A stretch of DNA of 64,000 nucleotides from Psammoneis japonica (lineage: Eukaryota), in assembly GCA_008632985.1 (NCBI GenBank), contig QPGO01000106.1, positions 186,001 through 250,000 on the forward strand, given 5' to 3'. The notes beneath the pieces are model-generated. The model did not search any database. It was not told the DNA's origin and saw only the letters and a program-made list of their open reading frames with translations. How positions within the stretch are numbered: position 1 is the stretch's first letter; each line of letters starts with the position of its first letter. A program made the position numbers and the translations under genes. Shown here piece after piece: positions 20,504-64,000 of this stretch.

Positions 20504-20524
20504 TTCAAGAATTGCATCATGGAG

Positions 20525-21035: not shown

Positions 21036-21320
21036 GCGACCACCTTCCATTGAATTGTGGCTGCATTGAACAATCGTTGTGTGCAGCGGCTGAATGTGTT
21101 TGAATTGATTGGGCAGCAAGCATTTTTTCAATGGAAAGTGAGAGGGCAATGTGTGGATTCAGATGTCCTGTTCACGTGACCCCATTGCAGATTCTATGCT
21201 GAGAAGTGCGAGCCTGCCCCAACAGCAATCTTTCGCGATGTAGAGTCACTGCGCAGAAATTGTGCAGGACAGCACCAAGACAAGTCTGTCTGTCTGTCCT
21301 CAGTGAATTTTAACTTTGCG

Positions 21321-21413
21321 AAAAATGGATTTGACTGTTTTCTGATCAGGTGCATTTTTCTTCAACACATTTGCAAAAATGCACCTGACCCGACAACAGT
21401 CAAGTCTGTTTTT
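21321..21413. repeat. Imperfect inverted repeat with 39-bp arms and a 15-nt loop
   Basis: aaaaatggatttgactgttttctgatcaggtgcattttt pairs with aaaaatgcacctgacccgacaacagtcaagtctgttttt. Confidence 0.8.
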
Positions 21414-28027: not shown

Positions 28028-28850
28028 TTGCAAACAGCCACAACAGCATCTCCACCATCCACTGAGTCTTTTCACAATGATCTTTCCCAGCATTGTCACT
28101 TGGTTTGTAAAGATTGGGAGGAAACAATTGAAAAGAGTGGAGCTGTGCTTGACCAATTCATGCAGCAAGAGTGGCAAGGTTGCGCCCGTGCAATTTGGGA
28201 CGCTGGCTGCAGCGTCAGACCACAGACGATTGGCTTGGCAAAGAATGACAGTTGTGATGAGATTTGTGCTTCTGACCTGTCACCCATGGCAGCAGAACAT
28301 TGTTGCAAGGAAATCAAGTCTTGTGGATTGCTTGCAGACAACAACAACAACAACAAGAAAATGATGAACCTTTCCGTGTTTGTGGCGGATTTGCGGCACT
28401 GGCAGAATCATCATTTGCAGGCGGATCTTGTGTTGGCCTGGGACAATGTTTTGCCACACTTGATGGATGAAACCTGTCTTGAACAAGCACTCAAGGCATG
28501 CTTTGCTTGCACTTGTCCCGGCGGCAGTTGTCTTTTTTTGGTGCGCGACTGTGAAAAGGAAAAACTGCAAAAATGAAATGACCATGTCGATTGTGGGACA
28601 CAGAGCTGTGGGACTCCAGTTTGCCAAACACAACAATGGCGCAGTGACAATGATTGCCAATCTCTGGATTTTCATTTTGTTGACAAAGAAGAGGGCCACA
28701 TGCATGTTGTCAAAGGCAGGGAATGCCGTGCTTGTTGGGGGATTGCCTGCTTGCAAAGCTGAGAAATGCTGGGTGCAAAAACGTTCATCGTGCGGATGCA
28801 CCCTTTGCCCAGCCTGCATTGGTTGGTCACTGCCCACAAAAAAAAGCTGC
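28028..28850 (+). pseudogene. Class I SAM-dependent methyltransferase (glycine/sarcosine N-MTase-like), hypermutated relic
   Basis: ESFHNDLSQHCHLVCKDWEETI (from FY..L..YYHL.Y.DW); IWDAGCSV.PQTIGLA (motif I); ASDLSP; VADLR; DLVLAWDNVLPHL; PGGSCLFLVRDC; C-terminal AGCKNVHRAD.PF.QPALVG in another frame. Confidence 0.75.
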
Positions 28851-30089
28851 CATGCCATTGCTGTTTGTTGTGCCGTGTTTTTTGAAATGTGTGACAAAGG
28901 ATGCTGCCAAGATCAGCAAAGGAACAGCTGATGAAAAACATGCAGAAGAAATGGAGTGATGTGGGAGACTTGGGTTTTGCTTGCTGCTGCTCAAACTTGT
29001 TGCCAGATCCTCCACAGTCTAAAAGACAGAGCTGTTTGACCATTTCAACCAAGTTGGTGAGGTTCATCAACCCGCCGGCAGGCAACACAACAGAAGCCAA
29101 TGCATGACAGACCAACAACTTTGTTGAGGACAATCAAGAAGGTCTTCATCTTTTGGAGCCAATTCTCCACAGCATTGTCATGTTGGTTTTCAGTCTTGAA
29201 TTGTTTGTCCACTGTGCAGTTCATGGAGATGAGGGCAGCCATGCTTCCTCATTGCTTTCAATGGAACAGCAACTGCAGCATCGCAAGCACACTGTCCCAG
29301 GAATGCAACCCATGCTGCGTTCCACAGCATTTCTCCATTGAGTTCCTCACGTCATGCTGACCATTGCCCCCTCTTCAGCAACCACACCTTCCTTGTTCTT
29401 TTGGAGGAAGCACGGGAATTTTTCCCGCATCAAAACAACCAGGTTGTTGTGCGGTGCATCGTGTTTTTGATGGTTTCATGCAACAATGCAACAGGAGACC
29501 ATGCCATCTAAAAAGCATTGCAAGCCAACTTTGACAGAGCACTCATGTCATTTCTGGACAGGGTGACTTGTCAATGTGAGCAAGAGTTCACCAACCAGAG
29601 GCCATGCAAACAACCCCAAATGATGTGGCAGTGAATGGATCTAAAGGCATGTGGAATGCCCGAACCAGGCAACAACAGCTTGCCCACACAAGCAAGGTCA
29701 AATTGGTCTCCAAATGCTGCAAAAAGAAATGGGAAAACACGGCAAAAATGGACACAGATGTCAGTCACGCAAAGCAGGCCATTGCCATGATTGCTTTCTT
29801 TTTTGGTTGTCTTTGCCACTGCTGTGAGACCCAGGCCTCAAGTGACTTCAAACTGGCAAGGCAGGCATGCTCTGGATGAGCGTGCAGACCATCACCATGG
29901 TGACACCGCAGGGAAATTGATCAAATCTCTCACCGACGAGATGGTGACAATTGCACTGCTTCAGCGGGTGTCTAAAACCATCATTGCTTTCTGGACATTT
30001 GCAACAATCACTCTGTCAGACTCCATGTGTTGTGCCATTGTAAAAGTCCAGTTGGAGACAAGCATTTTGGCAAGATTTTTCAAAACATG

Positions 30090-32050
30090 CCATTTGGCTT
30101 GTCTGTGAGGGTGTCCACAATTCCGATGATTCTGCGCGCACCTCGCGCATCGCTGCTGCTCACTCTCAGCAGCTCCGCTGAACAAATTGCAAAAACGATC
30201 AACACCCCTGAGAGCACTCCACTGCAGCAGATGGTCAGCATCATGAACAATGATGATGGAAGCACCAGCAAGCAAAAGGACCAAGCAAATGTGTTCAAAA
30301 GAAACAAAGCACCAAATTGCATGGCCAAGGGTGGCAGCACAGGAGTGCAAGCATTCTTAGAAATGAAAAGAGTCATGGCAACACATGCTTCCATTGTGTC
30401 ATCCAACAGCAAAGAATGTTTGTCAGACACAAAGAAAAAGATTTGAGGTGCAGATGTCTTTTCTGGACCTCTCTCAGAGCAGGCCAAAGACAGCGAGGTT
30501 GCCTGTCTCCTCCCCAATGCCACAAAACATGTGCTGTTGAATGGCACAATGTTGTGCATTGAGTGATTGGCCAGGACCAAGAAGAACAAGCAGATTGGGC
30601 AACTCAATTTTTTGCCTCCTTCATGGAACAAAGGGCAACGACAAAACACGTGTGTTTGGCACTGGGCTGCAACATTTTGTTGCAAACAAGACTTGGATCA
30701 TTGGACAAGAAGAATCGGTTTTTGAAAAAGAGGGCTCTCAGGCATTGATCATTCCCATCCCAAGCATTGGGGAATGTGTCAATTTGAATGGCAGGAATTG
30801 TGTGGCTGTTCTGTTGGTTGGTGCTGACAAGAATGGGAAAAGTGCCAATCATGGGCCATTGGTGACATCAGATTGAAGGACATTAAAAACATTGCCAATC
30901 TTTGACACCACAATGCCAAAGGAATCAATCTGAAAAAGGCACTTCTTTTCCCTGAAAGAGTGTGTTTTTGCACTGAAGCAGGCATGCATCAACAACTGCA
31001 AGTGCCACTCCAGGTGCCTGGGAATGCAGCTGAGGACAAAGAGAAGACCATGAAGGAAGCAGCAGGCTTGCAACAGAAATGCATTGAGAGCTTTTGTGCT
31101 GCTGTCGATTTGCTTGGTGCAGGATCAATTCTGGCACCAAAGAAAGGAAAGACTGGGCCCACCTGTTTGCAAGATTTTCTTTGGCAACAAAGACAGCAAA
31201 GAGAGTTGCATGCATCCTGTTCCTGACACCATGCTGCTCCTTGCACGTGCTGCTGTTGTTTGGTCAGCCAGGCAGAAGATTTGTCTTCGAGCTTCTGCTG
31301 TTGCCCAGGACAATCACAGTGTCTCAAAGCAGGGTGACAATGCACTTCAACCAGAGCACTTGTCAAAGCCAAAGCAAGAAAAAGAAATCACCAGACTGGA
31401 TCTGACTGTTGAACACAAAGGTTTGCAAAATTTGACATCAAAACGTCCTCTGTTTCTTTGGAGAGCAGTTCATTTCCTCCAGTGCTGAATTTTTTGCAGG
31501 CTTCAATGTGGTTTCCACAGCTGTTGATTCACGTTGCTGTCAAACTCAGATGAAACCTGATGACCAAAGCACCCCAATGCCAAAGTCCAGGTGTGAACAC
31601 ATGCTCATCAACTGGAGCACTGGCATGGCATGCAATGTCCATCACAGCTTTCAAATGACTCCACGCTCTCTCTTGAAAGCACTTCTGAGGACCAAGCTCA
31701 AAACCAAATTCTGCAATCTGTCAAACTCCAGCAGAGCATGCACTGGCACCCTGTCATGAGCATGCCATGCTTGGACATGTTGAACATGGACAAAAAGCTT
31801 CCTGCTTGTGGTCACTCATCGCCAGAAATGGCCAAAGCTGAGGATGATGAGAAATTGGTTCTCAGATGCAAGACAAGCTTGATCTCATTGCAATGAAAAA
31901 AATTGGATGAAAAAGTCAAGCCAGTGTTTTGTTGATCAAAAAGATCTTGGCTTCCTTGGTTTGAGTTCAAGTGTCCCTCCCACAAACCTGTTGACTGATC
32001 CTGATGGGTCCAGCAAATCACTTTGAAAGAAATTAACAAAATGCTCAGAA
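30090..32050 (+). repeat. Longest copy of repeat family A, containing the empty site of the Copia insertion
   Basis: aagtccaggtgtgaacacatgctc at about 31583-31606 joins the two flanks seen at 3060-3076 and 6911-6918. Confidence 0.85.
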
Positions 32051-32352
32051 AATCTGCTGGAAATTGTTTTGCACCCCAGCCATGCAACAACTAACCTGCT
32101 CATCAAACATGCAGCAAAACAAATGGCTCCAAGGTGATGAGCAATGGCCCACTTGGTGTTCAAAATGTGCTTCTCTTCTTGCCTCCTTTTTCGTGCTTGT
32201 GGAAATTTGAACATTTGTTTGAGACCATTGGAAAAAGCTCCTGTGTTGCGGCTGCTGCTGTTTTGGCTGCTCTTTGACACAACAGCTCATCTGCACTGAA
32301 TTTTAAATGTCATGGCACCATTTGTGTGGGGGGTCAAACTGTTGTGTCTGGC

Positions 32353-32358
<6 letters not shown>

Positions 32359-32389
<31 letters not shown>
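32359..32389. repeat. (AG)15 microsatellite
   Basis: Directly visible. Confidence 0.95.
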
Positions 32390-32394
<5 letters not shown>

Positions 32395-33676
32395 CTTCAA
32401 TGAGGTTTGTGTGTGCTTGGCTTGCTCAAGTTGCAGCTGGAGGATGTTGGAGAGCGGTGGGCAGGTCCCAACAATGTCGGTGTTATGTTGTCACCCAAGC
32501 TCTCAAAAATGTCATCAAGTCCTTGAAACACAATGGCCAACAGATCTGGGCAGACTCCCCCATGATGCAAAAGTGTTGTGATGTGCAGTGTGTTGCTCCA
32601 GTGGCTGTTGTGTCTTGAGACTTGAAAAGAACTGGCTGGAACCTCCAACAAACACAACCCTCCAATCTGGACTCCAAAGCTCCCCCAGGAATTGACAGCA
32701 TGTGTTTGCAAAAGTCAAGCATGGCTCCTTGACCTTGCCCCATGTGACCCCATTGCAGCACAGAATCCCCAAAGAATCCATCTGTCCATCTGTGTCTCCC
32801 CCCTGCCCTGACCCCAAATGGACCAGAGACAGATGGGTGAGACAAAGTTGGGGTTTGGGGCTGACCACTTTCAAAATGACCAAATTCGCAAGCAGTTTTT
32901 GTGTGCAAAATAAAGTGCAATGACTTTTGCATGGTTTGGGGTTTCACAAAAATTGCTTTTTTTGCTGATGTGAAACATTCCAAATTTTGTGTTGCCTCAG
33001 TCATTTTTGGGTTGGGATGCCATTGACTCCTGGCCAATCGACTGGCCATTTTTTTGTTTGGAGGTCATTTGTGTTGAACATTTGAGTGCCAGTTGCTTTT
33101 GTCTTTTTTTCATGCCCTCAATCTGTGCATGGTGACATGGCCCTTTTTTCCGTTGAGATGATGGATGCAGTGATTTTGTGCTTTTTGCGTGCTCGCTCGC
33201 TTTCAAACCGGAGATTGTGGGTGCAAACAACTCACTCAACACCCTTGTTTCTGCACCTGACAAGGACAATCACATGATGCAAGCCTGGGTTGTTGACAAA
33301 TTGTCAATTAAAAGTCATTGTCTTGTGGCTGCAATCTTTAGTTGCAAATGCCTTGCACAGTCATTTGCAGCACCAGAGGAGCCTGACAGCCTTCTTGGAA
33401 CCCTCTCTTGTGCTCCTGAAGTGACCAAGGAACTCACTCAATGCCAATGGCATGCCCTTTGTTTTCCTGCCATCAAACTTCTTCCTGAGACAAAGCCCCC
33501 ATCGCTGTCATCACTCTGGACAGAACCACATGAACCCAGCTGTCTCTGCAGTCAAAGTTGTTGTTGGACAACAGCCAGGCTCTCCATTTTGTTCCTCCCC
33601 TCTGGAGCTTGTGCGCAGTTGCTGTGTTGTTGCACAAAATGAGAGCTGGGTCAATTGCTTCCTTCAACTGATTCTT

Positions 33677-34070
33677 GACGCGTTCCAGCCCTAGGTGGGA
33701 GCTCGTAGCACTGACGTGTGACACAAATAATTTTTGTCATCCGTCGTATGTTTCGCACGTACATTTCTACGTGTGGTATTTAAAAAAAATTGTCCAGACT
33801 CGCTGTTTTGCGAAGCCCCAGACGTTTTATATAACGAATTTATAGAAACAATAATGCGCCAGTTACATTCTTCAATGTCTGAAGAATGTAACTGGCTAAG
33901 TAAAAAATGATGTACTTCAATCATGGGCGAGTTTGTGCGTTCGCAAAATTGCCCTTTTTTTTTGGCGATCATTGACATTTTAATTACCGTATAATTTTAG
34001 TACAGAGCTCGCACGTAGAATTCTACGGGCCCAATGTCACACGGATTCCCACCTACGTCTGGAACGCGTC
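33677..34070. mobile_element. MITE, 394 bp, with 4-bp TSD
   Basis: TIRs gacgcgttccagccctaggtggg and cccacctacgtctggaacgcgtc match 21/23. TSD TCTT at 33673-33676 and 34071-34074. AT-rich non-coding interior. Confidence 0.88.
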
Positions 34071-35442
34071 TCTTAGGGTTCTCTTGTCAATGAAACCCAT
34101 CACAGGGACAGCAAAGTTGACAACACAGCATGTCTCTCTCCTCCTTGGAGCTGTGCACAAAACAGCCCCCCCCTCCCTTTTTCTCATGCCTCAAGACAAT
34201 CGACTCAACTTGTGGAACACAGGCTGACCTCACCCAATGACTGTCAATCCTCGTCAACTCCAAATCATCCAAACAAACACACTCCTTCAGCTCAACTCCC
34301 TCAAAAAAGCCAACAGTGTCATTGGCCTCCTTTTTCTCCACGTTCTCGTTGAGGTTCATCATCACAGGGTGGCCACACAAAGCTTTGGAAGTGGGCCCAC
34401 ATGCCTTGATTCATTCCCAGCTTGTTTGACATGAGCATCTGGGCAAACTGCAAACAAAATGTCCCTGGACAGCTCATCTTGAAAATCCACATGCTCGCAC
34501 CTGGTGCTCCATTTTTTCCACTTGAGGTTCTTGCTTGCTCAGAGGACAATGGTGTGGGTTGGAGGTGGCTGTGCAAGAGATTTTGAATGTGCTCCCTCTG
34601 GCACCTTCTTGAAAATGCCATTGTTGACTGCATTCCTGTCAAAATTGGTGGCAACAGCACAGGCTGCATTGCTTGGGATGTCACTTTCCATGAGGAAAAG
34701 ATTGCTGGCAGATCAAGGTTTTTTCCACTGGCAGATGTTTCCACGAGAGTGTCAGTTGCAAAAATGACAAAAATCCAGAGGAGAATGGCTGGCCTGTCAG
34801 GACTCATCTGATCACAATGAACAATGAAAACACCACCAAATCATGTCTTCAGCTTCACATTGCTTCATCAAGAATTGGGTGACAAAGCACAAAGTGACAA
34901 AACAAAAGTGCAAGACAGAACATGTTGCTGATGACGATGCATTGTGCAACATTGTGCACTCTCCGCTTGTTGCACCCAACCATTTGTGGGCCGCTGTCAA
35001 GTTGGCTGGAGAGGCGTGTGATGAAGATGACGCTGATGAAACATTTCACAAAACTTGCATGGATGTCATGAAGTCATGATTTGCTGGTGGCTGATGAGTG
35101 TCCAAATGAAGCAAAAGAGCACCACGGACATCCTTCTCTTTGACATTTTAACAATTGCAATGTCATTGTGTTGTTTGAAGCATCTGATGTTTTGTCTTCA
35201 AATGTTTGTAAACTAAAGACAATGAGACACAGCCGTTCAGCCGCGATACGTCCAATCATCTGTCGTCACCGCTAGAGTTATCAACAGTTTATCCGCCTAC
35301 TCACAAATACTGAAGTGCTTACGTCAGCATGTAGAATTGTACGTAGTTCACTACCATTCGAAATTTTCGTTCGTGTTGCCCTCAACGGTCCTAAAATTTC
35401 CGAAATTTGTTGTTGCAGACATTTTCATTTCTCAGCACGACC

Positions 35443-39843: not shown

Positions 39844-40619
39844 GACTGCGTGTTGTGCGGCAGAGGAGAGAGCTTTTCGCAAACGCAAGACCTCTTGATT
39901 TATGTGCCAAATCCAACAAGAGGACGGACCTTTACGCGGGACTTGAAACAACGCTGCAAGCAGGATTTATTGTGGTCGCGGGTTCTACATCAACAACACG
40001 CGCGCACGCAAGCAGGATTTTGTGATGTGGTCGCGGGTTTTGTCGGGATTGGATTGGGGGAGATTACACTGGCAACATTCATCATACACGATAAAACGCA
40101 TTAGATCAAACTCGTGACTGGGTCATTCTCTCATGTGACATGAGGGGAGAAGAGCTGCAATGTTAATCTCATTGTTAAGGTGTGCATGATGATGCTGCAC
40201 CGATGCGACACCTGTGGCACAACTCTCATCATGATGCCAAAATTATAGCGGTGCCGACTACATCATTAAGCGTGAGAGGAAGCGTCTCAAGGCAAATAAT
40301 ACAGTCAATGTTGGTCAACGACCTCCTACATTCTGTTCACATCGAAAAATCTAGCTCCAAATCGAAAAGTACTAATGTTATTTGACTGTTGGTTTCTCCT
40401 TGATGCCGTACGGTACTCACCAAAACGTTCCGAAAGTAGACAGATCGTGCCCTTGGAGACGGTCGACATCATTCACAAATCCAACTCAAATACCGGGGAT
40501 GATTGGGCAGAACGAGGATGCTGTTGTACTTTCAGAAGTGCAATCGCTATCCAAATGGCTCCCTCATGTAACAAATGCAACGTTAGTCCTGTTTCAAAAA
40601 CAGCCAGTCGTCCCATCAA

Positions 40620-41469
40620 TCAATTAAAGCGTTCCATGAGTGGCTCTAATGAAAAATAAATCAATGCTGAAACAACGACACCATCTGAATTGAATGGTGC
40701 AGTTGCTTCCCCAACTGTTGAAATCACAGCTAACGCCAAGACAAGCCGCATGTCTAAAAGACCAAAACCCAAAAATGGTGGATACAGACACAGTCCAATC
40801 ATTGTTCCAACAAGACACCCATGCTACCTTCCAAGGACTTTTGAGAACAAAGCGGCGTTACTCTGTACTTGTGCTTTGCCGTCACGAGCGGTGCAATGCC
40901 GTCACCAAATCCACCGCCAAAACCTAGTGCCGCCATGATTACGGCAGCCTTGACAGACTTGAATTCGAACAAACCCAACCAAGTTAGTATGAGCACAAAC
41001 TGAAATGGACCTCCAAGTAATTCCATTGGATCGCCACTCTGGGTCATGTTTTGTATATCTTCGTGCTTGGGGTCTCGTACATACAGGGCCTTGAACAAAA
41101 GATATATACCTCATGTGTGAGAATAGCTACAATTCGCACAGAAAGCATGTGAACATCAGATTTTGAACTCCCTCTCTCTCTACTTACTAGATACAACAGT
41201 TTGATAGCATAGACAAGTGGGACCGTAATATTCAAAGTCCACGACCAATGATTCGTATCAAAGAACGGCCAAAACAGTAGCAACGACGAAGCGCCAATGT
41301 GAATGATTCGTAGTCCCAACACGGGCTTGTTCCAACGGTCTCGAACAAGCGTGCAAATTTCCATGAGCACCAATACATAAACAAAAGTCAACAAGGCAAC
41401 AATAGCATTGTTGCTCAGCGCATCTTGAGGTAGTAGAGATGCCGATAATGAAGAGGAAAGTGGTGCCAT
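40620..41469 (-). pseudogene. Phytol/farnesol-kinase-like (cytidylyltransferase family) tandem copy A with a frameshift
   Basis: Exon 41469-41188, GT-AG intron, exon from 41089. A 1-nt deletion near 40812 relative to copy B and a GFGG duplication. Motifs RIIHI, GDGIAPL, KSLEGS. Confidence 0.75.
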
Positions 41470-41946
41470 TTCAGTTGAATCTCATCGTCACAGAGTGATG
41501 CGTTTCCCGCCATTTTTTTCCTTTCCTCTATTTTTCTTAGTCATTCGTGCTATTGCTAGCTAGCACTTTTTCGATCGCCATCAGCCGTTCATCAACCTTT
41601 TCAACAGGATCCTGGTAGGACCACTTGAAATAGGGAAGATGCTGACGTACTCTGAAAGTCACTGACTCTATCCACCTTTTACCGGGAAGGATCGATTTAG
41701 ATATAACTAATTTCTCGCCTAATACTCAAATTTATACTGTGTGGAACGAGCATTTTGTTGTGCTATTACGACCATCAAAGGGTCAATCGACATTGCTGTT
41801 ATCTCATATTCAGGAAAAAATGTTCTACTCTGTTTCAAACTGCGCAAAGATTGTGTATTTGGCTTTCACTCCTCTCACAGATCGAACCGTTGTGGTTCTG
41901 ACCAGTTATGTGTGACACATGTGACACAAGGTGTTGATCGCAACCA

Positions 41947-42766
41947 TCAATTAAACCGTTCCATCAGTGGCTCCATCGAAAAGTAAATCAATGCTGGTAC
42001 CACGATATTGTCAGAGTTAAATGGCGCTGTTCCTTCCCCAACGGTAGCAATTGCGCCCAAGGCCACGACCAGTCTTACATCTAAAAACCCCAACCCCAAA
42101 AGGGGTGGATACAGACTCAGTCCAATCATGGTACCCACAAAGACACCCATGCTTCCTTCCAATGACTTTTGTGATGAAAACGGCACTTTGTACTTATGCT
42201 TGCCCGCCACGAGCGGTGCAATGCCGTCACCAAATCCCAGCGCCGCCATGATTACGGCAGCTTTGAGAGTCATGAATTCGAGCAATCCCAACCACATCAT
42301 CACGACAACAAATTGAAAGGGTCCCACCAACAATTCCATTGGGTCGCCAGTGCGTGTCATGTTTTGAATATCTTCGTGCTTTGGATCTCGTAATATGAGT
42401 GCCTAAATAAGTAATACCCGGAGTACGTCGAGAAGCCACATTAGTGAGACAACAAAACACCTTGTTGTGCGCCTCTTCTTCACATTTTTTTCTCGTGTTG
42501 CTACTTACCAGATACAATAATTTGATGAAATAGACAAACGGTATTGCAATATTTAACGTCCATGACCAATGAGACGTGTCAAAGAGAGGCCAAAACAACA
42601 ACCATGAAGCTGCACCAATGTGAATGATTTTGCGTCCGAGTTCCGGCTTTTTGCAATAGTCTCGCACGAAACTGCAGATTTCCATCAATACCAGCACATA
42701 GACGAGTGTAAGAAAGGCAATAAAAACGTTGTTTGTCAGCGCGTCTTGCAGCAAAGGCGACGCCAT
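41947..42766 (-). CDS. Phytol/farnesol-kinase-like membrane protein, tandem copy B, intact (exons 42766-42509 and 42402-41947)
   Basis: GRKIIHIG, ELLVGP, GFGDGIAPLVAG, KSLEGS and DNIVVP motifs. Phase-0 GTAAG..TAG intron gives 237 aa. Confidence 0.88.
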
Positions 42767-43379
42767 GGTTGGTTAGGCGCGACACCACAAAGCTGCATGC
42801 AGGATTGTGCGTCGGCGTGAGAATATAAACGCCCAACACCCAACACGCACTTGAACACAGCACTGGTAGCCCTACAGATCCGTGCGCGCACGCAACAATG
42901 CTGCACTGTAGCGACACTCTCTCACCATTGCCGGCATTTGGAACAACGATAAGAGACAGGCAGAAGTGATTTGGAAAGCTGAGTCATTGCATTTTTTTGG
43001 CGGATGCATTGAGATAAAAGTGACAAATCACTCCAAAACAACTCCAGCCAATTTCAGCAAACAAGCAAAACATGAGATGAGAACACCCACAAGAGGAGGG
43101 CAGCAGCAAGAAAAGCGATGCAGTTGCTTGAGCAAAGAAGCACTTCGCAGGCTGTGGCATGGCATGGCTGAGAGACAGGCACAGCTGCAAGGAAGTTGGC
43201 TCTCCATCACCGTTTGATCCACTGAAACAAATGAAGGTGATCCTGATGAGAGAGATGGTGTGAGATGACTGTGTTGGCAGATTTTGAACAACAGCGCGTC
43301 ACTGCTTCTCTTGTGCTGTGCCCCTGAGTTCTTTTGGCTGAACATGCCACGACGCTGTAGAAAAAAGTCATTTTGACAC

Positions 43380-44400
43380 ACACTGGTTGCACAAGGACAT
43401 GATGTGGCACTGTGAAAACTCGAATTTTTTGCACCAAAAACTGAAAAAAAAGGTGCCAACTTTTGGCCACCAGTGCTGGGTGTGTTTCTCCAATGGCTGT
43501 TGGCCACATGGACAACCTTTCACGAAGCATGCACAGAATAAAGTTTGGATCTGCAGGGCTTTTACAGAGTTTCAGTGCTGCAACACAACCACAATCTTGG
43601 CCCCCTCCAATGTCAAAAAGTGTTCATGTGCACCCTTGCACAGCTGCAATGTTCTTTCTGCAAAAGGCAGTGCAGCACACACACCTCTCTTTTGCCAACT
43701 TTTGTGCTCCCAGATGCTGTTGACACAACACAGGTACACCAACACAAGCTGTGCTTGTTTCCTTGAATTTTGTTTGTGAGTGAGAAATGTGCAAACTTGT
43801 GCCCTTTTTGTGGCTTCTTTTGGCAGAACTTGTTGTGGCTCACAGGTTTTGGAGCTGCCAGCACTGCCATCATGGTGCACCTCCTCTCTCCATGCTCATG
43901 TTGAGTTGCAATGAATCTTTTCTTTGGACAGAAAAAAGTTGGTGCACACAGGTGCAAATTTTGTAGAGGAGCAGGCAGAGGCAGCACATCATTGTGGAAA
44001 AGGAGGCTCTTTGGGTTGATGGCACCAAGCTGTTTTTTGCAGGCAGAAGGCCAAAGCTGCTGGCATGTCTGCCCTCTTCTTTCAAGGTTAGTTTCAGTGC
44101 ACAAGTGATGCCATGCATTGCACACATTGACATCACAGCATTTGCTTGAGCATCGGCAGAAGCTGCCTGAGAGAAGACTCAGAAGTCAGGAGTCTCCAAC
44201 AATCAGCACAGAGATGTGTTTGAACTTGGGAATGAGCAAAGGAGAAGCTGGGAACTTCCTTGGCATCAAGATTGAGAATCTGTCCAATGGCTGATTTCTT
44301 CTCACCCAACCTGGTCTGATCAACGAGGTCCCACACATTTCCCAGACAGAGGGCCACAACTGGGTCTCTCTGCTCCAGCTCCACCCAAGCCCATTGACTG
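43380..44400. repeat. Dispersed repeat family B copy
   Basis: 44060-44400 aligns with 45770-46125; 43545-43620 and 44060-44100 align with 49735-49805 and 50023-50063. Confidence 0.8.
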
Positions 44401-44795
44401 AACAGAAATGACGATGCTGTTGAGCGAGTTGTCGTTCAACGCCGAGTCCGATTCGAATGAACCCGCGCGCGTTAATTTTGTCGAAGGGAAAACCAACGCA
44501 GAAAGATGGATTTATTGTCCGGTCCCGAAACGCCCGTGGATCCCGCCGAGTGCAGAAAGGTTTTGTTTCAGAGCGATGGCGACATGGCTCCTTTGGCGGA
44601 AGAAGAAGAAGGAGAAGATTAGGCTTAATATGTATTGCATTGGTACTTGGAGTGCTTGTCTTTTGTATAGTAGCAATTTGAAATTTTATGGTGAGATCTA
44701 TTGCAGTATAGCAAGTCGAATTCAGCTTGAACCGACGATACATGTTGGAAGCCTACTCAACGAAGTTAGTAGTAGGCAAAGCCTATGGCATATGT

Positions 44796-45422: not shown

Positions 45423-45769
45423 TCTTCTTCTCCATCACACGCAACACAAGACATAAGACACCAGACACTGGTCGATTTTCAGGTATGGACACCGATCGAA
45501 AGCTCTCGTCGAGCGCTTTTCAGCCATGCACTGTACTGGGTGCAGTGTGTTGTTTATCAATTCCTTTTTCCTAAATTGAATGAAGGCGGCCGGTAAAACA
45601 TTTCAACGGTCAAAATAACTTGTGACTTGTGACAAATTGTATCCATGTAGAAGTGATGTGTGCACAAAAAAATAGCAATGCTGTTTTTTAGCGCACGATT
45701 GCATTCTGCGCGCTTTTTCTCAACAAATGTTTTGGGAGCTCGAGAGCGCCCGTTGGCACCTTTTTGTGT

Positions 45770-46125
45770 GGCATGTCTGTCCTCTTTTTTCGAGGTGGGT
45801 TTCAGGAGTGCACAAGCAGTGATGCCATGCATTGCGCACATTGATGGCACAGCGTTTGCTTGAGCATCAGCAGAAGCTGCCAAAGAAGAGACTCAGAAGT
45901 CAGGTGTCTCCAACGACCAGCAGCACGCAGAGACACACCTGTGAACTTGGGAACGAGCAAAGGAGAAGCTGGGAACTTCCTTGGCATCAACACCGAGAAA
46001 CCATCCAATTGTTTTTGACTTCTGCTCACCCAACCTGGTCTGATCAACAAGGTCCCATGCATTTCCCAGACAGACAGCCACAGCTGGGTCTCTCTGCTGC
46101 TCCAGCTCCGCCCAAGCCCGCTGAT
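45770..46125. repeat. Dispersed repeat family B copy
   Basis: gtgatgccatgcattgc.cacattga...gactcagaagtcagg...gggaacttccttggcatcaa is shared with 44100-44400. Confidence 0.85.
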
Positions 46126-48594
46126 GGCCTGTCTCAGCGCAGATGACCTGCCCTTTGATGAACCCCGTGATTGCTGCTCCTCTGTTGCTGGAGCATTTGT
46201 GTGCCTGGCAGCAAACAGCTGGCCACACATTGCATGTGCCACCCATGAAGTGGCACAGCTCTCATTTGCTCTGCACAGTGCTGATTCTGCCAGCAAAGGG
46301 GGCTCATTTCTGAAGCCTGCCAGCTGTCTTTGGGAGTGATTGTTGTGTGTTGGCTCTGGCGCTGTGGTCCTGTTTGGTGTCTCAAAGATGACAAAGACCT
46401 GGCTTCTGTCAAAAGTCCAGGAGGAACCTTGTCTGCCATGCCAGGGCTGTCCAATCATCTGGGTGCCCAAGCTGTGGACTCTGGCAGCACTGCTGTCCAC
46501 TGTGGCTGGAGGTGGAGTGTGCTGTGCTGTTGCAGGCTGTGCATGACCTCATCCCTGTTCTCATGGAGTCATTCAAGAAGCTCAGCCACCACATTTTATT
46601 TAGAAAGTCTGGCTGGTGCACTCCAAGGCCTTGTCCAAGCTTGCCAGCCAGGGCACGCACTGATGACTTGCCCATCCAGCAGAGACTGTGTCCTGCCAGC
46701 AACTGCAGTGTGCAAATGTGGCTCTGTGCATCTCAAGTTTTCACGCATGCCCAAGTTGTTCCCACAAACAAAGCACATCAGTGCAACCTGTCAGCACAAC
46801 CCAGCAACTGTCAGATCAGCTCATGAAGGGACTGCCTGTTGACATGTTTCACATGGCCAGAGGAAGGCTCATGTGGGCTGGTGATCACTCTCTTTTAGTT
46901 GAGAGGGGTGGAGTCGCAACTCAAATGCCCCCCTGTTGCTCAACTCCTTGCCGGCAGCAGACAGGAAGGGTTTGGTGACAGAAGCAAACTCTTCAGCATT
47001 GCCACGCACCCAAGGCTCAGCAAAGGGATGGCTTTGTTGTTGAGGCCAATGACATCAAGGGAATTTAAGAGCACTGCTTGGCTTTTGGCTTGGGGTGAGT
47101 GCTTGACTTCTCGGGAAGTCAATCTGGTGGCAACCAACAAAAAAGCGGTTCTGGTCTGTGCCAAGGTCTGGGGTGGGAAGGAAACAGATGAGCGGCTCTT
47201 GCTGGCTGGATGTTGCAAGTGACTTGTTTCCATGAAAGAAACTTCAGGAACTGACTGGCATCCAGTGCTGTTTTAGAGAGCAAAAATTTCAAAAGACATT
47301 TTGCATTTGCTGATTTGATGTGCACATCAGAGCCACTGCCCTCAGCAGAGTTTGGGCAAATGCTTTGCTGAGTTGGGTTGAAGACTGCCACATGTTTCAC
47401 AACAAATTCTTTTGTGTGGCTCTGGGAGTCACTCCGCACAACATGCAGCATTTGAGTGAGAAGTGCATGAAGACACTTTTTGCCGATTGGAACCATGCCA
47501 CACTCATCACAGACTGTGTGCCCTCTCCAGTGGATGGGAGGCAGTGCATTCGTGTGCCAAGAAATTTTGACAACCGAAGGCAATCCAACCTGTTGTGGAT
47601 CAGTTCATGCCAAATGACAGCAGTGCTGCAACTCATTGGCTTGTCCTGCACTTTTTCTGTGGCCCCCTTGGCATTGTGGCATGTCAAGAAAAAGCCAGAT
47701 CTGCAAGCCTGAGTCCTTCAATCAAGGTTGGAATGAGGTGGCATGATCAGATGACCACAAGGCACCACATTGAGACTTGAGAAAGCCAGATGGCAAGCAA
47801 TGGAACGTCCATTTTGTGCAGAGATTTGGCCTTCTCTCTTCAACTTTTGCTCAGTTTTCTCACAGCCATTTCATTGCCTCAACTGCATCATTGTGAGAGC
47901 CCCTCATTTCTGCGCTGTCTCATTTTAGCCATTGTCTCTGCTTGTTTCTTTTCACTCTACTTCTTGTCCTTCTTCATTTCATGCTCCTCATTCTTGTTCT
48001 TCTGCTTCTTTGTTGGTTCTGTCCAATTGCCATGTGGTGGCTTCTCCTTTGGCTCTTTTTTTGTTGCATGATGGTCCCTGTGGCACAAGCTGGACCCAGA
48101 AAAGTGCTGGCCAGGGCCAGCAATGAGTGTGTCTCTGCAATGCAAACATTGAAAACACACAGGTCGATCCGGTCTCAGCATCATGTCCATCATCACGAGG
48201 CCTCCGTCCCCCTCTTGGATGCACTCACCCTCTGAAGAAATGTCCAAGTTCTTCTTGCATCTCGTGCATGTGCTTCCCAGAGGAAAGCAGGCGCCTTTTG
48301 TGCTTGTTTCAGTCTTCTTTTTGATGGTCTTCACTGCAGCAGCCTGCTCGTTTGCAGCAAGAGCACTTCTTGGTGGCGGGCTTCTCATGTGGGCTGGTGG
48401 CACAGGTCCTCATCTCCTGCTGATTTTCCCGGTGGCCGGTGGTGAGTGCTCATGCCATGAGGCAAAGCAATGACACGACAGTGCCAAGATGTGTGCCATT
48501 TCTCATTGTGCATGTGTGCACATGTGTGCACATGTGTGCAAACCAAAGGTTTCAAAGAGTTCGCCAACCCATGTCTAAAAAGAAAGACCAATCC

Positions 48595-48735
48595 ATGCCA
48601 TCTCAAACATCTAAAAAAATTGCCAATCCATCTAAAATGTCTCAAAGTTGTCAAAAACATCTCAAATGTCTTAAACATCTTCAAAAAATTGCCAGTCCAT
48701 CTCAAACATCTGCCACAAAAAAGCCAATCCATCAT
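48595..48735 (+). repeat. Short degenerate repeats of catctcaaa / aaaaaattgcca.tccatc
   Basis: Directly visible; may be subterminal repeats of an unidentified element. Confidence 0.6.
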
Positions 48736-49539
48736 TGTGCAGTTGTCCATGACATGGTCTTCCTCATTGCCTGCATCATCAATTCCTTCCTCTGCTCACT
48801 TTCCATGGTTGGCTGCTGTTGTCAAGTGCAAATCTTCCCATTGGCTGAGTCACCTGCCACAACCAGCTCCTCAAAGAACTTGCTGGCTCTCGGCGACATT
48901 CACGTCATTCTTTCCTGCTGCCTGTGCCTTCCTCCTCTGCTGCACTCAAGTTGCTTGCTGTGAAGTGCTTGAGTTGTCTTGCCCACTTTCTCTTCTTTTC
49001 AACAACTTCCTTTTCTGTGAGCCCCTTGTTGGCGATGCTTTCAAAAAGCTTGTTTTTGTGCAGCAGCTGCGGACAGAGGGGAAAGTTGGGGGGAAACATT
49101 GTGAAAATGCTGCGGCGCTCTCAACATTGTTGTTTGGGAAACAATGAGAGGCAGGCCAGAGTGAGCTTGGAAAGCTGAAACAGACAGGTGAAATGTGAGA
49201 GAGAACCCACAAACCACTGACATGTGTCATCATCACTTGAGCAGCCAGGAGCGGCACGGCACATGACACACCCTCTGAAAAAGAAGCAGACAGAGGAACA
49301 GCTGTGAGGAAGCATGCTGTCTTTGCTTTGCCATTTGACCATTGAAGCAAGCAAAGTTGATGATGCTGAGAGACAGTGTGAGGTGACTGTGTTGGAAGAT
49401 TGTGACAGTTGTGTGCTCCATGCCATGACTTTGCTTGCTCTGCTGCCCGCTGCCCACAGAAGCGCTCCTGCTCTTGGCTGAGTGCTGCTTGCTCTGATGA
49501 TGCCACACAGCAAAAAAATTTTGATCCTGGCATGCAATG

Positions 49540-50065
49540 ATTGTGCAAGGATGCAGCAGTGTGTCACAATGTGAGCTCTGTTTTTTTTTTTTTCACCAAA
49601 AGCTGAAAAAAGGCGTGAACAACTCTTGGTCAAACCAAACCAATCTCCAACGGTGGTGGCCCCGTGGCTCCTGACCTGACCTTTTTCAACATTTCAGCAC
49701 AAAGCATGTGCGGTGCTCCTGGAAAGATCATGAAGATCTGCAGGGCTTTTGCAGAGTTTCAACATCAAACACAACTGCAATCTTGACCCTTGCACCTCCA
49801 CAAAGTTCTTTTGGCAAGAGACAGCTTGCCGCTCTGGTGCCCACCCACCCCTCACCAGCCAGCTGCGGCACTGTTGGATGCATTCCAAGTGAATCTTTTC
49901 TTTGTTTGGACAGAAAAGACTTCATGCACCCTGATGTAAATTTTGCAGAGGCAGATGCACATTGGTCGATGGCTGGTTGTGTTTTTTTTTTTTTTCTCGC
50001 GGCGGCAGCTGTCCAATGCCGTTGGTGTGTCTGCCCTCTTTTTTCGAGGTGGGTTTCAGTGCACG
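49540..50065. repeat. Dispersed repeat family B copy
   Basis: gatctgcagggctttt.cagagtttca and gtctgccctctt.tttc.aggt..gtttcagtgcac are shared with 43380-44100. Confidence 0.75.
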
Positions 50066-50687
50066 AATGACGTTGAAGCCAAGGATTTTTTTCTGTGCGT
50101 CAGTGGCCAAGGCTTTCAGGATGTCTTTTCTACGTGTTGTCATAGTATTTTATGGTAGATCTTCAATGTCAATCCCGTATTGCCGTTGACACCAAACGTC
50201 ATCAGTGAGCATCATTAAAAACATATAAATCTGCATACGTTTTTATACCATCTGCAAAAAATCCCTATTGCCTTTTATGAACCTGCACCCTCACATGACG
50301 TACTTACTTATGTTCCCGAACCCCAACGTAAGACTGATGTCGTTTGTTGGGGCCATCCATCAGCAAGTGCGACGGGGCATCCGTGCATTTCCACGGCATG
50401 CTGGTATGTATCAACCTACCGAGCCCTACATACGGCTCTTTCTACCGGCATTTCTGCACAAAATACGACCACAGTCGCTCGACGCCCCTCATCCCTCATT
50501 ACAACAGTTGACAACTCATTGACACCTTTTAGAGCCCTTTTACTTGTTCATTATTGCATGTATAGCTGACAATAGACTGATTGAGAGCAAAAGAAAGAGT
50601 CCGCAGCCAAAAAGAGCTTGATTCGGTGGGGTTCGGATCAATCGTATCAAGTGACGTGACGCGGTTCTCATAATTCGAGATTCGAGA

Positions 50688-56564: not shown

Positions 56565-57701
<1,137 letters not shown>

Positions 57702-58947: not shown

Positions 58948-59119
58948 ATGTATCTTTGTACCTCTATTGACGTGAAAAGTGCGTTTGTTTCTTCTGATAA
59001 TGTGGATGCGGGCCTACTTGGTGCTTTTTGTGTTTGCAATCGGAAGACACATTATACCGGGACCGGAAGTACATCATTTGCGAACGATGGTGATTCAAGC
59101 GAGTCGGATCTCTTATCCC

Positions 59120-59870
59120 ACGTTTGGACTTGGCGCAGCCGTTCCACGAGAGGCAACGAGCGAGAGACAATGAATGCAAAGGAGGACCTGCGGCTACTAG
59201 AGTTAGAGAGAGCTGCCTCGGAAGACAGCGTACAAAAGCACCGTCCAGGAGAGTTGCTGAGGTGCACGTTTCTTAAAGGCGTGCCCGTCGCGACTGATTT
59301 CAAACTGGGACCAACCCTCATCTGAAGCCTTTGAAACTCCACTGGTGAATCTCCTTGCTTGATGGAGACAACTCCACTGGTGAATCTCCTTGCTTGGTGG
59401 AGACAGCTTGGAGCAGGTAGAAAGATCGGACTGCACTGTGGTCTCTTTCCGTTTGTACTTCCCGTCAAAAAGCTATGATCAGATGCACCATAGCTCATTG
59501 TGGCTCCTAACAACACATGTGAAGGCACGTTTGTACTTGGCGCGGCCGTTCCATAAGAGGCAAGGAGCAAGAGACAGCGAATGCTATCTAGAGGACCTGC
59601 GGCTAGAGTTAGACAGAGCTGCTTCAGGAGGCACGGTATAACAGTACTGTTGAGGAGAGTTTAACGCGCCAGTTTGTTAAAGAAGTGGCCGCCATGACCC
59701 ATTTGAAAGTGGGGCCAACGTCCGTCTGAAGCCTTTGAAACTGCACAGGTGAATCTCCTTGCTTGACGCAGACAGCTTGGAGCTGGTAGAAGATCGGATT
59801 ACAATGCGGCCTGTTCCGTTTGTATTGCCAGTCAAAACGCTGTGATCAGATGCGCCATACCATTGTGGTC
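59120..59870 (+). repeat. Diverged tandem duplication (period about 406 bp) with a nested 35-bp duplication
   Basis: cacgtttg.acttggcgc.gccgttcca at 59120 and 59526; aactccactggtgaatctccttgcttg.tggagac twice at 59335-59404. Confidence 0.9.
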
Positions 59871-60838
59871 CGAAAAATACAGAGGGAACAATGCATGCAG
59901 AGCAGGATTACTGCTCGTTGAGGATTTCTGCTTTGCCGCAAGATATTGTGGCGCGTCGGACAGACGGCGGGAAAATAACGCCGCGAATCATCGAATCACA
60001 CGCAGATCACGAATCATTACTCCCATCGCATCTCTATTATCAACGATGATCGCGACGATACAAGGTTCGCATTCAAATGCAACACGTTGAATTATCGCCT
60101 ACCTTTTTTAAAGATGTCCTCTCGTACAGGCGCCCTTCGTTCTCGTGCTGCAAATCTGCCGCTTCGTCAGTGAAGAAAAGCCGCGTCGTGATCAAGAGCA
60201 CGACGACCAAGACAAACAACATTCTCGTTGAGCTTCCCTCCAGTCGTGCCGAGAATGTTCTCTCATTGGACGAGATGGAGCATCACTTGAGAGAGATTGG
60301 AACAGACATGGGCATGTACATTTCCCATGTTACTGTGCTGGGCCGCAAACGGTACCCTTGAAATCGACATTGGCATTTCAAACGAAGTCACGACGAACCC
60401 GGCTGTCTCGATGTCACGTACTGGCCGCAAGGATACCTCCTCTGGATCTCTGTTCGTAAATATGAGCCCTCTTGGGTACACAGTGCTGGAAAAGAACTTT
60501 GTACTCGCATGGAAGAGGAACTGGCAAGCATGTAGAGGACGCTCGCTTCAATCGGGTGCAAGACAAGCTATGGTGGCATGCTAAGTGGAAATACTGGACG
60601 ATCTTAGAGATGTACATACTTGCATTCAAAGCGGAAAGTAAAGCTAAGTGATGGCTGGTCCTAGCTAGAGATAAAGATAACAATTGGCTGCAGCACGCTG
60701 CGACATCTCGCAGTGCACGGAAGGTGACGAGCGGTGGCATTCGTATTATACTGGTCCGCAGCGACATGCGCGCCCCGTTCTATTTGGACGAGCCTTTAGT
60801 AGATGCAAGAGTTCCCTGCTGGTATGTTCGTCTTAGAT

Positions 60839-61846
60839 TTAGTGCTTCTCTCGTTCGCGCTCGAGTCGACGTCTCTCTGAATTGCTCCAAAGAGCACCAA
60901 TGGCGACACCGACCGGAAAGGCATACGTCATGAGAGCAGCCAAAAGAATGAATATCAAAAATCGCTGACTCAGTCTCTTTCTCACAAAATAGTCCACACC
61001 TATGCCAAAGCATGTTCCGCCTATCAAGAGCCCTTCAAGTCGAACTGCCAACCGGAGATAGCCCATTCCAATCGTGATTAATACATAGAATATCAGAGGA
61101 ATGAAAAAGACACCGAGCAGCCATCCAGCATACACAATGATTCGGCGACCGGAATGGCATGTCACCCTCCACAGCAAATCTCGATAAAAACCTTCGTTTT
61201 CGATATCACGGTTTTCCCTGTGACTGAGATCTCGCCAGTAGTGAAGCAGAAACGAAACTATCAACAGTCCTTCCACTATCCTGGGGACTGCTCGGCATAA
61301 AACACCATTGTCAATGACATTGCATTCTCCGTCACCACCAATCATCATTGCACTGGAACCACAACATCTCTCTGTCATCAAACCGAGTGACCAGAGGCAA
61401 ACCGCTTGAGTCGCAAGCAGAAAAGACCTGGCAAAGTAGGCAAACTTGCCAGGTATAGGCAGTTCATGACTCAACAATAAGTCAATCAATAAAATAAAAG
61501 AAGAACTTGCCAGCCGCGATAGGGTCCAAACAATCTTATTTGCTCTTGAGACAAGAATTGTTAACACAATGGCCAAAAACAAATAGCTGAACCCTAGCAA
61601 CGCTAGAGCAGACCGAGTACGTCGCACATCTTTTCTAAGTTTCCAAGCCACACAATATGCAACAAAGGTGAAGTACAACAGGAGAGATATGGCGGGAAAG
61701 AGAGCCACTGGGAAGACTCCAGCATAGGCTCCCATTGTTGACATGGGAATATCACGAACATTTCGACCAATGACACGACCGTAGCCTGCTGCGAGACTCA
61801 GCCTGTCGTTTCTCTGTCTATCAGTCTTGGCTCTATGAGGTATCAT
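60839..61846 (-). CDS. Hypothetical multi-pass membrane protein; start may be at about 61744
   Basis: 335-aa ORF with 7-8 hydrophobic segments and normal Tyr content. Confidence 0.7.
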   Translation of the reverse strand: MIPHRAKTDRQRNDRLSLAAGYGRVIGRNVRDIPMSTMGAYAGVFPVALFPAISLLLYFTFVAYCVAWKLRKDVRRTRSALALLGFSYLFLAIVLTILVSRANKIVWTLSRLASSSFILLIDLLLSHELPIPGKFAYFARSFLLATQAVCLWSLGLMTERCCGSSAMMIGGDGECNVIDNGVLCRAVPRIVEGLLIVSFLLHYWRDLSHRENRDIENEGFYRDLLWRVTCHSGRRIIVYAGWLLGVFFIPLIFYVLITIGMGYLRLAVRLEGLLIGGTCFGIGVDYFVRKRLSQRFLIFILLAALMTYAFPVGVAIGALWSNSERRRLEREREKH

Positions 61847-62265
61847 TGCCTGTTTGTTAGTGACGTTTGGGAGTCCTTGTCATCCATAGCTTACTTCGGA
61901 TTTTTACTCCTAATGTGTATCACATTCTCATGAGCGTTATTGTTGATCGTGCAATCATGCATCAGGCGGGATCAGCCATCATCGCGCAGCGTTCGCTTCG
62001 CCAGGCTCGCGGGAAACAGATCACTACACAAACCGTTATTCTGCCAGCAAGAGAATCTTTCCCGCAAAAATTTTGATCACGGCTGGCGGGCGTCAAAAAA
62101 GAGTGACCGCTCTATGTCATTGCAGCGCATCTTCTTTGCATCTCGCAATCACAACGTTGCGACCGCAACGTTTGCAACAACGATGTTTCCAGTTGCTGTC
62201 GCGGTGATGCAGATGAGGATGATCTGATTGGCGATGTTGACAGCTTCGCATTTTCGGCTCATGAG

Positions 62266-63410
62266 TTGTGGTCGTGCATTTGTGTGCATTTTTGCATTTG
62301 TTCTTTGCATGTTTGTAACAGATGGACTTGCAAGGTTGTTGACATCTTTGTTCCCAAATTTGTCGAGTCTGAGCCCATCACCAAAAACCACTTGGAACAG
62401 CCTGAAGGCATGGAAAACCAACCTCTTGCTGCAACTTGCATCGGATTGACCAAGTTTGAAAATTTGCAGAGCACAAGATCCCCCTCCTTTGGGAAATTTG
62501 TTCCCAGTGGCTGGGCGGCACTCATCATGCTGCACAATCCAGTTTCATTTCCATTGAGAGATGCGCTCTTGGACATCAGCAACAAGGAGTTGCCGGAACT
62601 CTTGAAGCAGACACAACTTGACAAGGCCTCACTCGCAAAACCCAACGCGGCATTTGAGAACCCCCAGCTGGACAAAGCCGTGACTCACCAAGCCTTTTGC
62701 GGACAGGGTGCACATCAACTTGAGGCTGTCCCAGAAAACAAGGAGAGTGCTTCAACGGGAGCCGCATTTGAAGCAGATGCCCTTTTCATGAAGGCTCTGG
62801 AGGTGCCAAAAGGCTTTGGCAAGTGCAGAGGAGGGGGGCCAAGTGGCAAAATTGAGGAACAAGAGGAGGCAGAGGAAGAGACGGATGATGTCCAAGAGTC
62901 TTGGTTGCCCACCTGACCCAGCAACTCAAAAGGGGCTTCCAGTTTGAGTTTTTCCACAGTTGGTGGCAGTGATGCAATGCAAACAGTTTCCTTTGATCCA
63001 GCACAACGGCTCTTGACAATGTCAAATTTCTGGTCAACTGGTGCAAGATCACATGAGGCTTGGCTGTGCAAACAATGCTCATGCACCAATGGTGAGAGTG
63101 ATGAGACTTGTGCCATGTGTGGGCGGGCGAGTGATCCGGAACCCGAGCAGCGATTAAGACTCTCAGAACAGCGAGCAGCAGGAGTGCATTGGTTGCCGCT
63201 GTGGCTCTGAGTCCCAGCATGTCAGAAGGTGAACGGTGGTTGTGTCTCACGTGCACCTGCATGAACCAAAATGTGCTTCATTTGTCTTTTGAAATTTGTG
63301 GCCAACCCCGGTCCAGATTGGATGCGAGTGCATTGCAAATGCTTGAAGATGCTGGACCACAAGGGGGGCATTGTCAGCAAGATGAGCAATTGGCAGGGGA
63401 ATTGTGAGAA
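62266..63410 (+). pseudogene. Hypermutated relic with two RanBP2-type zinc fingers
   Basis: WLCKQCSCTN.....CAMCG and WLCLTCTCMN......FEICGQPR fit W-x-C-x2-C-x3-N-x6-C-x2-C, with the usual Tyr/Phe position read as Cys. Confidence 0.6.
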
Positions 63411-63918
63411 AGGGCAGAGGAAAAGGAGCTTGTTTTACATTTGTTGACATCATGGCAGCAGAACAAAAAAGTGACATTTTTGTTGTGCACACACCACGAC
63501 CTGAAATGCAGCGGCAACATTCTGAACAACTTTGGAGGAAGCAGTTTCACAACCCCACAATGAAATGCAGCAATGGGAACAATGGCAACTCTCACAAGAG
63601 TTGCCTCATCTTTTGATGCGGCAGACAGGAAGCAAGAAAGTGTGAGATGGACTGCGCCCGATCTTGTGAGGCGGTCACGGGTCCTGTGATCGAGCGCGGT
63701 CGTCGCGCCACAAGACCAAAATGATGCTTTGTCATGCAACATGCACTGCCATTCTCTCGGCAAGACCAGCATGTTGTACCTGCAACAAACTTAATTCAAT
63801 CACTGCAGGCCCTGGCCAGCAACCCCTTCCCCATTTGTTGCACAGCGCTGGAGTCTTGCACTTGCGGCGCTGGTTGAGGAGTCATTTCATGGCTTGCCCA
63901 CACCGACCACAGAACACT

Positions 63919-64000
63919 TCAACAAAACAAAGGAAGAACTTGCCAGCTGCAACAGGGTCCAAACAATCTCATTTGCTCTTGAGACAAGAGTTGTGAGCAC
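63919..64000 (-). pseudogene. Hypermutated partial copy of the gene at 60839-61846; continues beyond the window
   Basis: Ungapped 82-nt alignment to 61486-61567 with 10 differences. Confidence 0.9.

Follow-up and report, generated by a model that had tools for sequence, protein, structure and literature searches.

Near the end of the window, by which we mean the whole 64,000-nucleotide stretch of DNA analysed here, a piece of an intact gene is found again in altered form, and the question raised by this locus is which of the two has changed, by what kind of process, and why its partner has been left alone. A self-search of the window pairs 61486-61567 with 63919-64000 (+; offset 2433) in an ungapped 82-nt match with 87.8% identity (E 1.9e-22); a chance match is rejected. 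The alignment contains exactly the ten differences that an earlier sequence-only reading had described, and site by site they fall as reported there. All five TpA of the gene are gone from the copy, four by TA>CA (61490, 61495, 61520 and 61537) and one by TA>GA, a T>G change at 61562, 6 nt before the match end; both CpG are also gone, by CG>TG at 61515 and by CG>CA at 61518. The other three differences (61499, 61557 and 61564) are A>G changes at ApA. Over these 82 nt the copy is free of both TA and CG, and thus has none that is absent from the gene. A count of substitutions by context, which the sequence-only reading had proposed, was run on the 82 nt and shows the expected excess at TA: the TA sites are changed in 5 of 5 cases against 3 of the 41 remaining A/T bases (Fisher p 4e-5 by site, 0.004 by base), and the CG in 2 of 2 cases against none of the 25 remaining C/G bases (p 0.003 by site, 0.015 by base). 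The same reading had pooled the seven TA and CG changes; the counts are right, but they do not belong to a single process, as the LTR pair discussed below shows two of very different speed.

The open reading frame on the gene side is real by homology, as had been supposed. It lies at 60839-61879 (-), has 346 aa from stop to stop with the first ATG at 61846, and encodes a hydrophobic protein. The full-length relative P0001 (351 aa) is 64% identical to it over 95%, and two further relatives are 32-33% identical. Pfam gives no family for this protein, and the ESM Atlas gives no usable match for it or for the ORFs of 62038-64000. Together with the window's gene (60839-61879), P0001-P0003 form a small family of unannotated membrane proteins that share a conserved Cys-Cys-Gly...Cys...Cys loop. 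The source segment of the duplication, 61486-62080 (+), consists of the 5' part of the ORF and upstream DNA, and it was spared, as claimed: it keeps 47.1 TA/kb and 45.4 CG/kb, compared with 34.0 TA/kb in the rest of the ORF and 42.2 TA/kb in the neighbouring gene-rich DNA. Compared with the window, a contig of run X1 that carries the gene has 4 differences in 1264 bases; at 61659 it reads TA where the window reads TG (Ala/Val).

The focal match stops at 82 nt because the window ends there, and about 530 nt more of the copy lie past the end. Three sequencing runs match, all from one sample and none listed as RNA; the best match may be the window's own source and is no independent support. In run X1, a contig of 1732 nt matches 62801-64000 without a difference and goes on as a collinear copy of 61568 to about 62080. 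After 64000 it has 93 unplaced letters, then 61659-61770 (with 12 other letters) and, after skipping 74, 61845-61911; another 112 are skipped before 57 letters from 62024. The pieces sum to 1715 of the 1732 letters. Since they add up collinearly, the copy is a local duplication at the DNA level of about 600 nt, comprising the gene's 5' part and non-coding upstream DNA. The extension beyond the window proposed by the earlier reading therefore yields a collinear layout, and past 64000 the copy is known by this layout, not by its letters. The three unplaced stretches have 10.7-11.0 TA plus CG per 100 nt, the highest of seven stretches (the others have 6.2-9.0), a small number of cases that is in line with the reading preferred here. 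An assembly echo of the gene is rejected by the ten patterned differences and by the contig, which joins the copy to 62801-63918.

The copy is part of a much wider pattern in the window. TA-free blocks were defined by a two-state HMM on TA over 61578 scored bases, with a polyproline gene and a 42-nt tandem array omitted. On the whole, eight such blocks cover 32889 of the 61578 bases. TA has an observed/expected ratio (o/e) of 0.05 in the blocks against 0.60 outside, a figure that is selected for by the method, while the CG and CA/TG figures are not: CG has 0.38 against 0.95, the CG>TG/CA pattern of CpG decay found in repeat blocks, and CA/TG rises to 1.70 in the blocks. AA/TT is not depleted there (o/e 1.28). 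The largest block (14756-33691) has 63 TA in 18936 nt (o/e 0.048), one block (62038-64000) holds the copy, and the remaining six are 2280-3126, 4267-8331, 12897-13926, 34075-35148, 43016-44619 and 45690-50130. Gypsy and other repeats are inside the blocks and ordinary genes outside, and duplicates of host genes that lie inside blocks are also hit. Three other duplicated pairs, located outside blocks, have kept TA in both copies. Among the sequences outside, the tandem duplicates at 40611-42748 and 59119-59881 (72% identical) keep both TA and CG in both copies, and the 40611-42748 pair has weak CTP_transf_1 matches below the cut-off. An apparent mobile element at 11650-14755 is TA-depleted only in its DUF7869 coding part (12897-13926); its AT-rich flanks keep TA and carry 177-nt tandem repeats, showing that block edges can fall inside an element. 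As for the other contents of the window, 56565-57701 encodes ubiquitin fused to nickel superoxide dismutase according to Pfam, a fusion that is presumably linked to diatoms and that, with the named relatives of the gypsy element described below, marks the window as eukaryotic and diatom-like; 8616-11270 (-) encodes a secreted-looking Cys-rich protein with long polyproline tracts and spans a 646-base assembly gap; and no tRNA genes were found in the window.

The claim that host-gene DNA is hit once it lies inside a targeted block holds, mostly by evidence outside the 82 nt. The TA-free block in which the copy sits (62038-64000) has 6 TA in 1963 nt (TA o/e 0.049, CG o/e 0.50). Its first 238 nt, 62038-62275, have 1 TA but 18 CG, and the TA loss thus reaches about 240 nt further toward the gene than the CG loss. 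Within the block, 62316-62717 (+) belongs to a repeated family and is mutated; its relatives, found in the same runs, keep TA and CG. Its comparison with them gives 36 scored differences (36 of the 40 displayed, with 90 more existing), including 8 TA losses and 11 CG losses in the window, and no TA of the window is lost in a relative. A second diverged copy, either allele or paralogue, has the window's letter at 7 of 7 TA sites and at 7 of 11 CG sites, small numbers taken from depth sums, which suggests that in the focal block TA went first and CG later. The part at 63050-63300 shows two Trp-x-Cys-x2-Cys...Cys-x2-Cys motifs in different frames, belonging to a broken gene inside the block. We take the motifs to resemble RanBP2-type zinc fingers; Pfam detects no zinc finger at 63050-63300 and no family for the ORFs of 62038-64000.

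The direction of change was the main point of the sequence-only reading, which derived it from the gene and its copy. The conclusion stands, that is, TA is destroyed in the blocks, as judged from the sequence; the pair itself, however, polarises the changes weakly, and the evidence comes mainly from elsewhere in the window. The clearest case is a dead gypsy reverse transcriptase-RNase H at 16561-17721 (-), from an element whose named relatives are found in Cylindrotheca, Nitzschia and Ditylum. It has no Tyr in 385 residues, and its catalytic YxDD reads CVDD. When scoring is limited to columns with at least 80% conservation among 115 relatives, all nine conserved Tyr, including the catalytic one, read His (5) or Cys (4), while the other conserved columns are kept in 120 of 135 cases, with Trp 6/6, His 4/4, Met 4/4, Lys 9/9 and Asn 4/4. 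A second mutated host-gene fragment, 32190-32370 (-), is related to the tandem genes 40611-41427 and 41938-42748; the TA common to both intact paralogues are lost in 5 of 5 cases and the CG in 2 of 2, against 26 of 111 other shared columns. Similarly, in 30209-30530 (+), a mutated copy of 11653-11979, 9 of 12 TA have become CA or TG, 2 are deleted and 1 is kept, and all 14 CG are changed.

The timing and speed of the loss can be estimated from a young element with two LTRs, 3077-3352 (+; 276 nt, TG...CA) and 6630-6905 (+), flanked by a 5-bp target duplication. The two LTRs differ at 18 places, and 17 of them lie on TA, CG, CA or TG steps. Since LTRs are identical at insertion, the TA loss must have acted after insertion. 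Five of the differences are CA/TG doublets, of which CG decay would give 0.07, and they are best read as one TA resolved oppositely in the two LTRs. The survival of TA is 0.32 per copy (hazard 1.1, interval 0.63-1.8), the CG hazard is 0.085, and other bases show 1 change in 264 base-copies, about 0.004. From this one LTR pair with its small counts, TA loss is about 13 times as fast as CpG decay and about 300 times the background, on both strands and after insertion. Among ApA-context adenines, none of 41 differs between the LTRs, while about two thirds of the TA are gone. A two-strand model fitted to the surviving TA gives hazards of 2.7, 2.0, 0.9 and 0.4 for T, C, G and A as the base 3' of the A. 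YTAR makes up 61 of the 107 surviving TA in blocks, compared with 195 of 1198 TA outside. At 42 polarised sites, RTAR goes to CA in 9 of 10 cases and YTAY to TG in 10 of 17, a modest majority (p 0.018); three of the four TA>CA changes of the focal pair are RTAR, as the rule predicts. The element (3077-6905) was inserted into an older repeat that is entirely free of TA. TA is normal in the element's left LTR and first 900 nt and depleted in its interior; the element also carries a 42-nt tandem array, with a 14-residue repeat ORF at 4714-6228 in which some Tyr remain.

We prefer the following reading. A local duplication put a segment of about 600 nt, made up of the gene's 5' part and the DNA upstream of it, into a repeat-rich block 2.4 kb away. 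The process active in such blocks changes A:T to G:C, nearly always at TpA (TA to TG or CA); it works on chromosomal DNA, after insertion, on both strands, whichever partner of a duplication is the older, and fastest at 5'-TAY-3'. It follows location rather than the origin of a sequence or the pairing of repeats, so that the TAs are gone from the copy and still present in the source. A second process, roughly 13-fold slower, removes CpG in the same blocks. The blocks themselves would be silent, CpG-methylated chromatin of the kind that DNMT5 makes on diatom transposons; the CG loss would be 5mC deamination, and the TA change would be enzymatic, due to a chromatin-guided deaminase that converts A to inosine, read as G. 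For this whole chain, from the local duplicate to the guided adenine deaminase and the slower CpG decay, we estimate a probability of roughly 0.5. Its parts are not equally firm: a location-dependent TpA mutator very probably acts in the window's blocks, and if it does, adenine deamination has slightly better than even odds of being its chemistry, the signature being equally compatible with attack on the A or on the paired T. In addition, the TA loss some 240 nt beyond the CG loss is not predicted by a strict methylation-guided model and counts against it.

Several other explanations have to be weighed, two of which concern the chemistry. The same location-dependent mutator could attack T, by a thymine modification at 5'-RTA-3' (for example TET/JBP-type oxidation) that mispairs with G and leads from T to C. 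It would give an identical signature and context, as TAY is RTA on the other strand, and oxidised thymines occur in other protists; yet the window contains no positive evidence for it, and mutation at about 300 times the background would be easier to reconcile with the product of a deaminase than with a stable epigenetic base. We consider it rather unlikely. Patch repair is improbable: here, a polymerase-eta-like enzyme, called in by mismatches from 5mC deamination, would make errors at WA (TA and AA) in methylated blocks. The TA and CG losses do share the blocks, and all three focal differences outside TA and CG are A>G at ApA; however, two of these three are synonymous in the gene and the third (61557) matches an outgroup. 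The TA loss also runs about 13-fold ahead of the CG loss and enters the CG-rich 62038-62275, and A>G at both TA and AA is absent, as the unchanged ApA of the LTRs (0/41), the retained Lys (9/9) and Asn (4/4) of the reverse transcriptase and the AA/TT ratio of 1.28 all show. Repair of this type is largely rejected by the ApA count of the LTRs.

The remaining explanations concern the direction and the target rather than the chemistry. For the focal pair only, the copy might keep the older sequence, the gene having gained TA and other A/T by ordinary GC-to-AT mutation. Protein outgroups bear on this, although only three relatives are available from a representative library. Read in the frame of the gene, five of the ten differences are synonymous; they include three TA sites out of five, among these the T>G close to the match end. 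The TA site 61495 is uninformative against the outgroups. The nearest relative, P0001, has the copy's residue at 61537 (a TA site, Lys/Glu; Glu in P0001) and at 61557 (a non-TA site, Ile/Thr; Thr in P0001), and agrees with the gene at 61515 (Arg), where one distant relative has the copy's Gln. On the other hand, the two distant relatives give no backing to the copy at the 61537 and 61557 codons, though they are noisy, given the Gln at 61515; codon 17, next after 61515, is Pro in all three relatives, and Pro can be reached from the codon of the gene in one step, from that of the copy in two; and in a simulation with all changes placed on the copy lineage, at least two matches to P0001 arise in 7.4% of 20000 runs and one in 48%. 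An older copy should also have kept some ancestral TA, but none is left in its 82 nt (chance 0.03 at normal TA density), and it lies in a block where the direction is established independently. One or two of the focal differences may thus have arisen in the gene lineage, and an older copy as a whole is distinctly improbable. Very improbable is a RIP-like process set off by the pairing of duplicated DNA: the hit sequences are repeats or duplicates and the focal duplicate is about 600 nt long, but in the focal pair and two others only one partner was hit, TA persists in both members of duplicates that lie outside blocks, and parts of single elements are hit with the adjoining parts spared (12897-13926 versus its flanks); the published Bigelowiella natans case, as far as its main text describes it, likewise acts on a single-copy region. 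RIP proper is rejected, because TpA is destroyed here (o/e 0.05), not created, and the source keeps its TA and CG. Barely credible is RNA or cDNA editing of retroelements before integration (ADAR- or APOBEC-like), or selection against TA. Retroelements are indeed among the targets; nevertheless, LTRs that were alike at insertion differ, both TA>CA and TA>TG occur, and a DNA-level duplicate with non-coding upstream DNA is hit, while the loss of a catalytic Tyr cannot be selected for. Editing of this kind is rejected as contradicted by the LTR pair, in which both strands are changed.

The signature of our preferred reading, a location-dependent TpA mutator, is not unprecedented. In the chlorarachniophyte Bigelowiella natans, TpA-only A:T>G:C hypermutation was described in integrated viral DNA (Mettrop et al., bioRxiv 10.64898/2026.01.13.699255), with a rate of about 6e-7 per site and generation; according to the main text of this preprint, it arises de novo in lines and also in a single-copy region, transposon-like coding sequences are TpA-poor, and an ADAT2-like enzyme is proposed. 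Two features of this case are found in the window, namely A:T>G:C confined to TpA on both strands, and mobile or foreign regions hit with ordinary genes spared. Judged by that text, the window's process works like the one in Bigelowiella: both consist of TpA-only transitions to TpG and CpA, are regional, require no second copy and leave TpA-poor transposon-like coding sequences. The differences are as follows. The window's host is diatom-like, and the main text of the preprint does not contain the word diatom; about half of the window is hit, near completion (o/e 0.05), compared with 0.45 in the viral region, although a near-TpA-free subset of coding sequences is also described there; in the window, duplicates of host genes are hit and their source is spared; the 3' preference TAT > TAC > TAG > TAA and the rate relative to CpG decay are measured here and absent from their main text, and its supplements may show the preference; and mutations were seen arising in lines there, while here they are read from the sequence.

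The comparison can be extended to three other systems. RIP of ascomycete fungi is context-specific, premeiotic and RID-dependent, makes TpA from CpA and hits both copies. The window's process resembles it as a context-specific hypermutation that wrecks transposons and gene duplicates, but has the opposite chemistry, and only the block-resident copy is hit. The same preprint describes RIP as C>T on homologous repeats (10.64898/2026.01.13.699255). In diatoms, DNMT5-dependent CG methylation silences transposons (Hoguin et al., PMC9998398). Such methylation would readily explain the CG loss in the blocks and might be the mark that guides the process; it leaves TA untouched. Amphioxus ADAT2 (PMC10354150), a natural tRNA deaminase that acts on A and C of DNA as well, demonstrates that A-to-I deamination of DNA can occur in nature. 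In E. coli, its reported context is GAA for adenine and TCG for cytosine, not TAY, and its activity is weak and not targeted to blocks (PMC10354150); it is the one natural ADAT2 shown to edit DNA, and its GAA preference, as reported, counts against the deaminase reading. In the literature covered, with most subscription papers outside its scope, we found no report of a TpA process in diatoms or on transposons, and nothing on the context preference of TadA.

The breadth of the process among relatives was examined at the protein level, using gypsy reverse transcriptases from ENA, JGI, NCBI and Logan, some of which may belong to the same species as the window. Tyr-poor enzymes make up 5 of 120 relatives in an unbiased search, and 11 of 213, near-copies included, after a second search built on the Tyr-poor ones; they include P0101, P0132, P0087, P0095, P0015, P0112, P0138 and P0150, known at the protein level only. 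In a quick tree of 65 of the 214 rows, with Tyr, Cys and His masked, they fall together with the window's protein on six branches as drawn, and the well-supported branches force at least two changes. For example, 47 of 314 residues differ between P0150 and P0130, its intact neighbour, and 15 of these are Tyr to Cys or His, out of 18 Tyr. Among metagenome loci with related reverse transcriptases, none of 78 is TA-free and the whole-locus TA o/e is 0.45-1.0; these come from the best 80 of 404, and intact elements are the ones that assemblies tend to recover. This result counts against a wide spread. In the viral collection, nothing was found for related reverse transcriptases. Tyr loss may serve as a quick protein-level screen for hosts of the TpA process. 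As a tentative idea, a natural DNA adenine deaminase, guided by chromatin and rewriting each TA of silenced domains, may be common to diatoms and chlorarachniophytes. No repeat pairing would be needed, so that transposons and host-gene duplicates in such domains would be destroyed and the source left intact, and several hosts would be involved because the Tyr-poor enzymes fall on several branches of the gypsy tree.

For targeted A-to-G mutation of chromosomal DNA we found one published report, the preprint on a rhizarian alga, and the window would extend the TpA process to another major lineage. The 82-nt pair is a small example of the process, not its best proof. The pattern of the process in the window, with TAT > TAC > TAG > TAA, ApA spared and about 13 times the speed of CpG decay, gives a fingerprint for testing enzymes. 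If the shared deaminase is real, it would be a natural adenine base editor serving as a heritable genome defence. Since a hit copy lies beside a spared source, location, and not sequence or pairing, would select the target, and such targeting bears on the fate of gene duplicates as well as on the dating and annotation of repeats in genomes of this kind.
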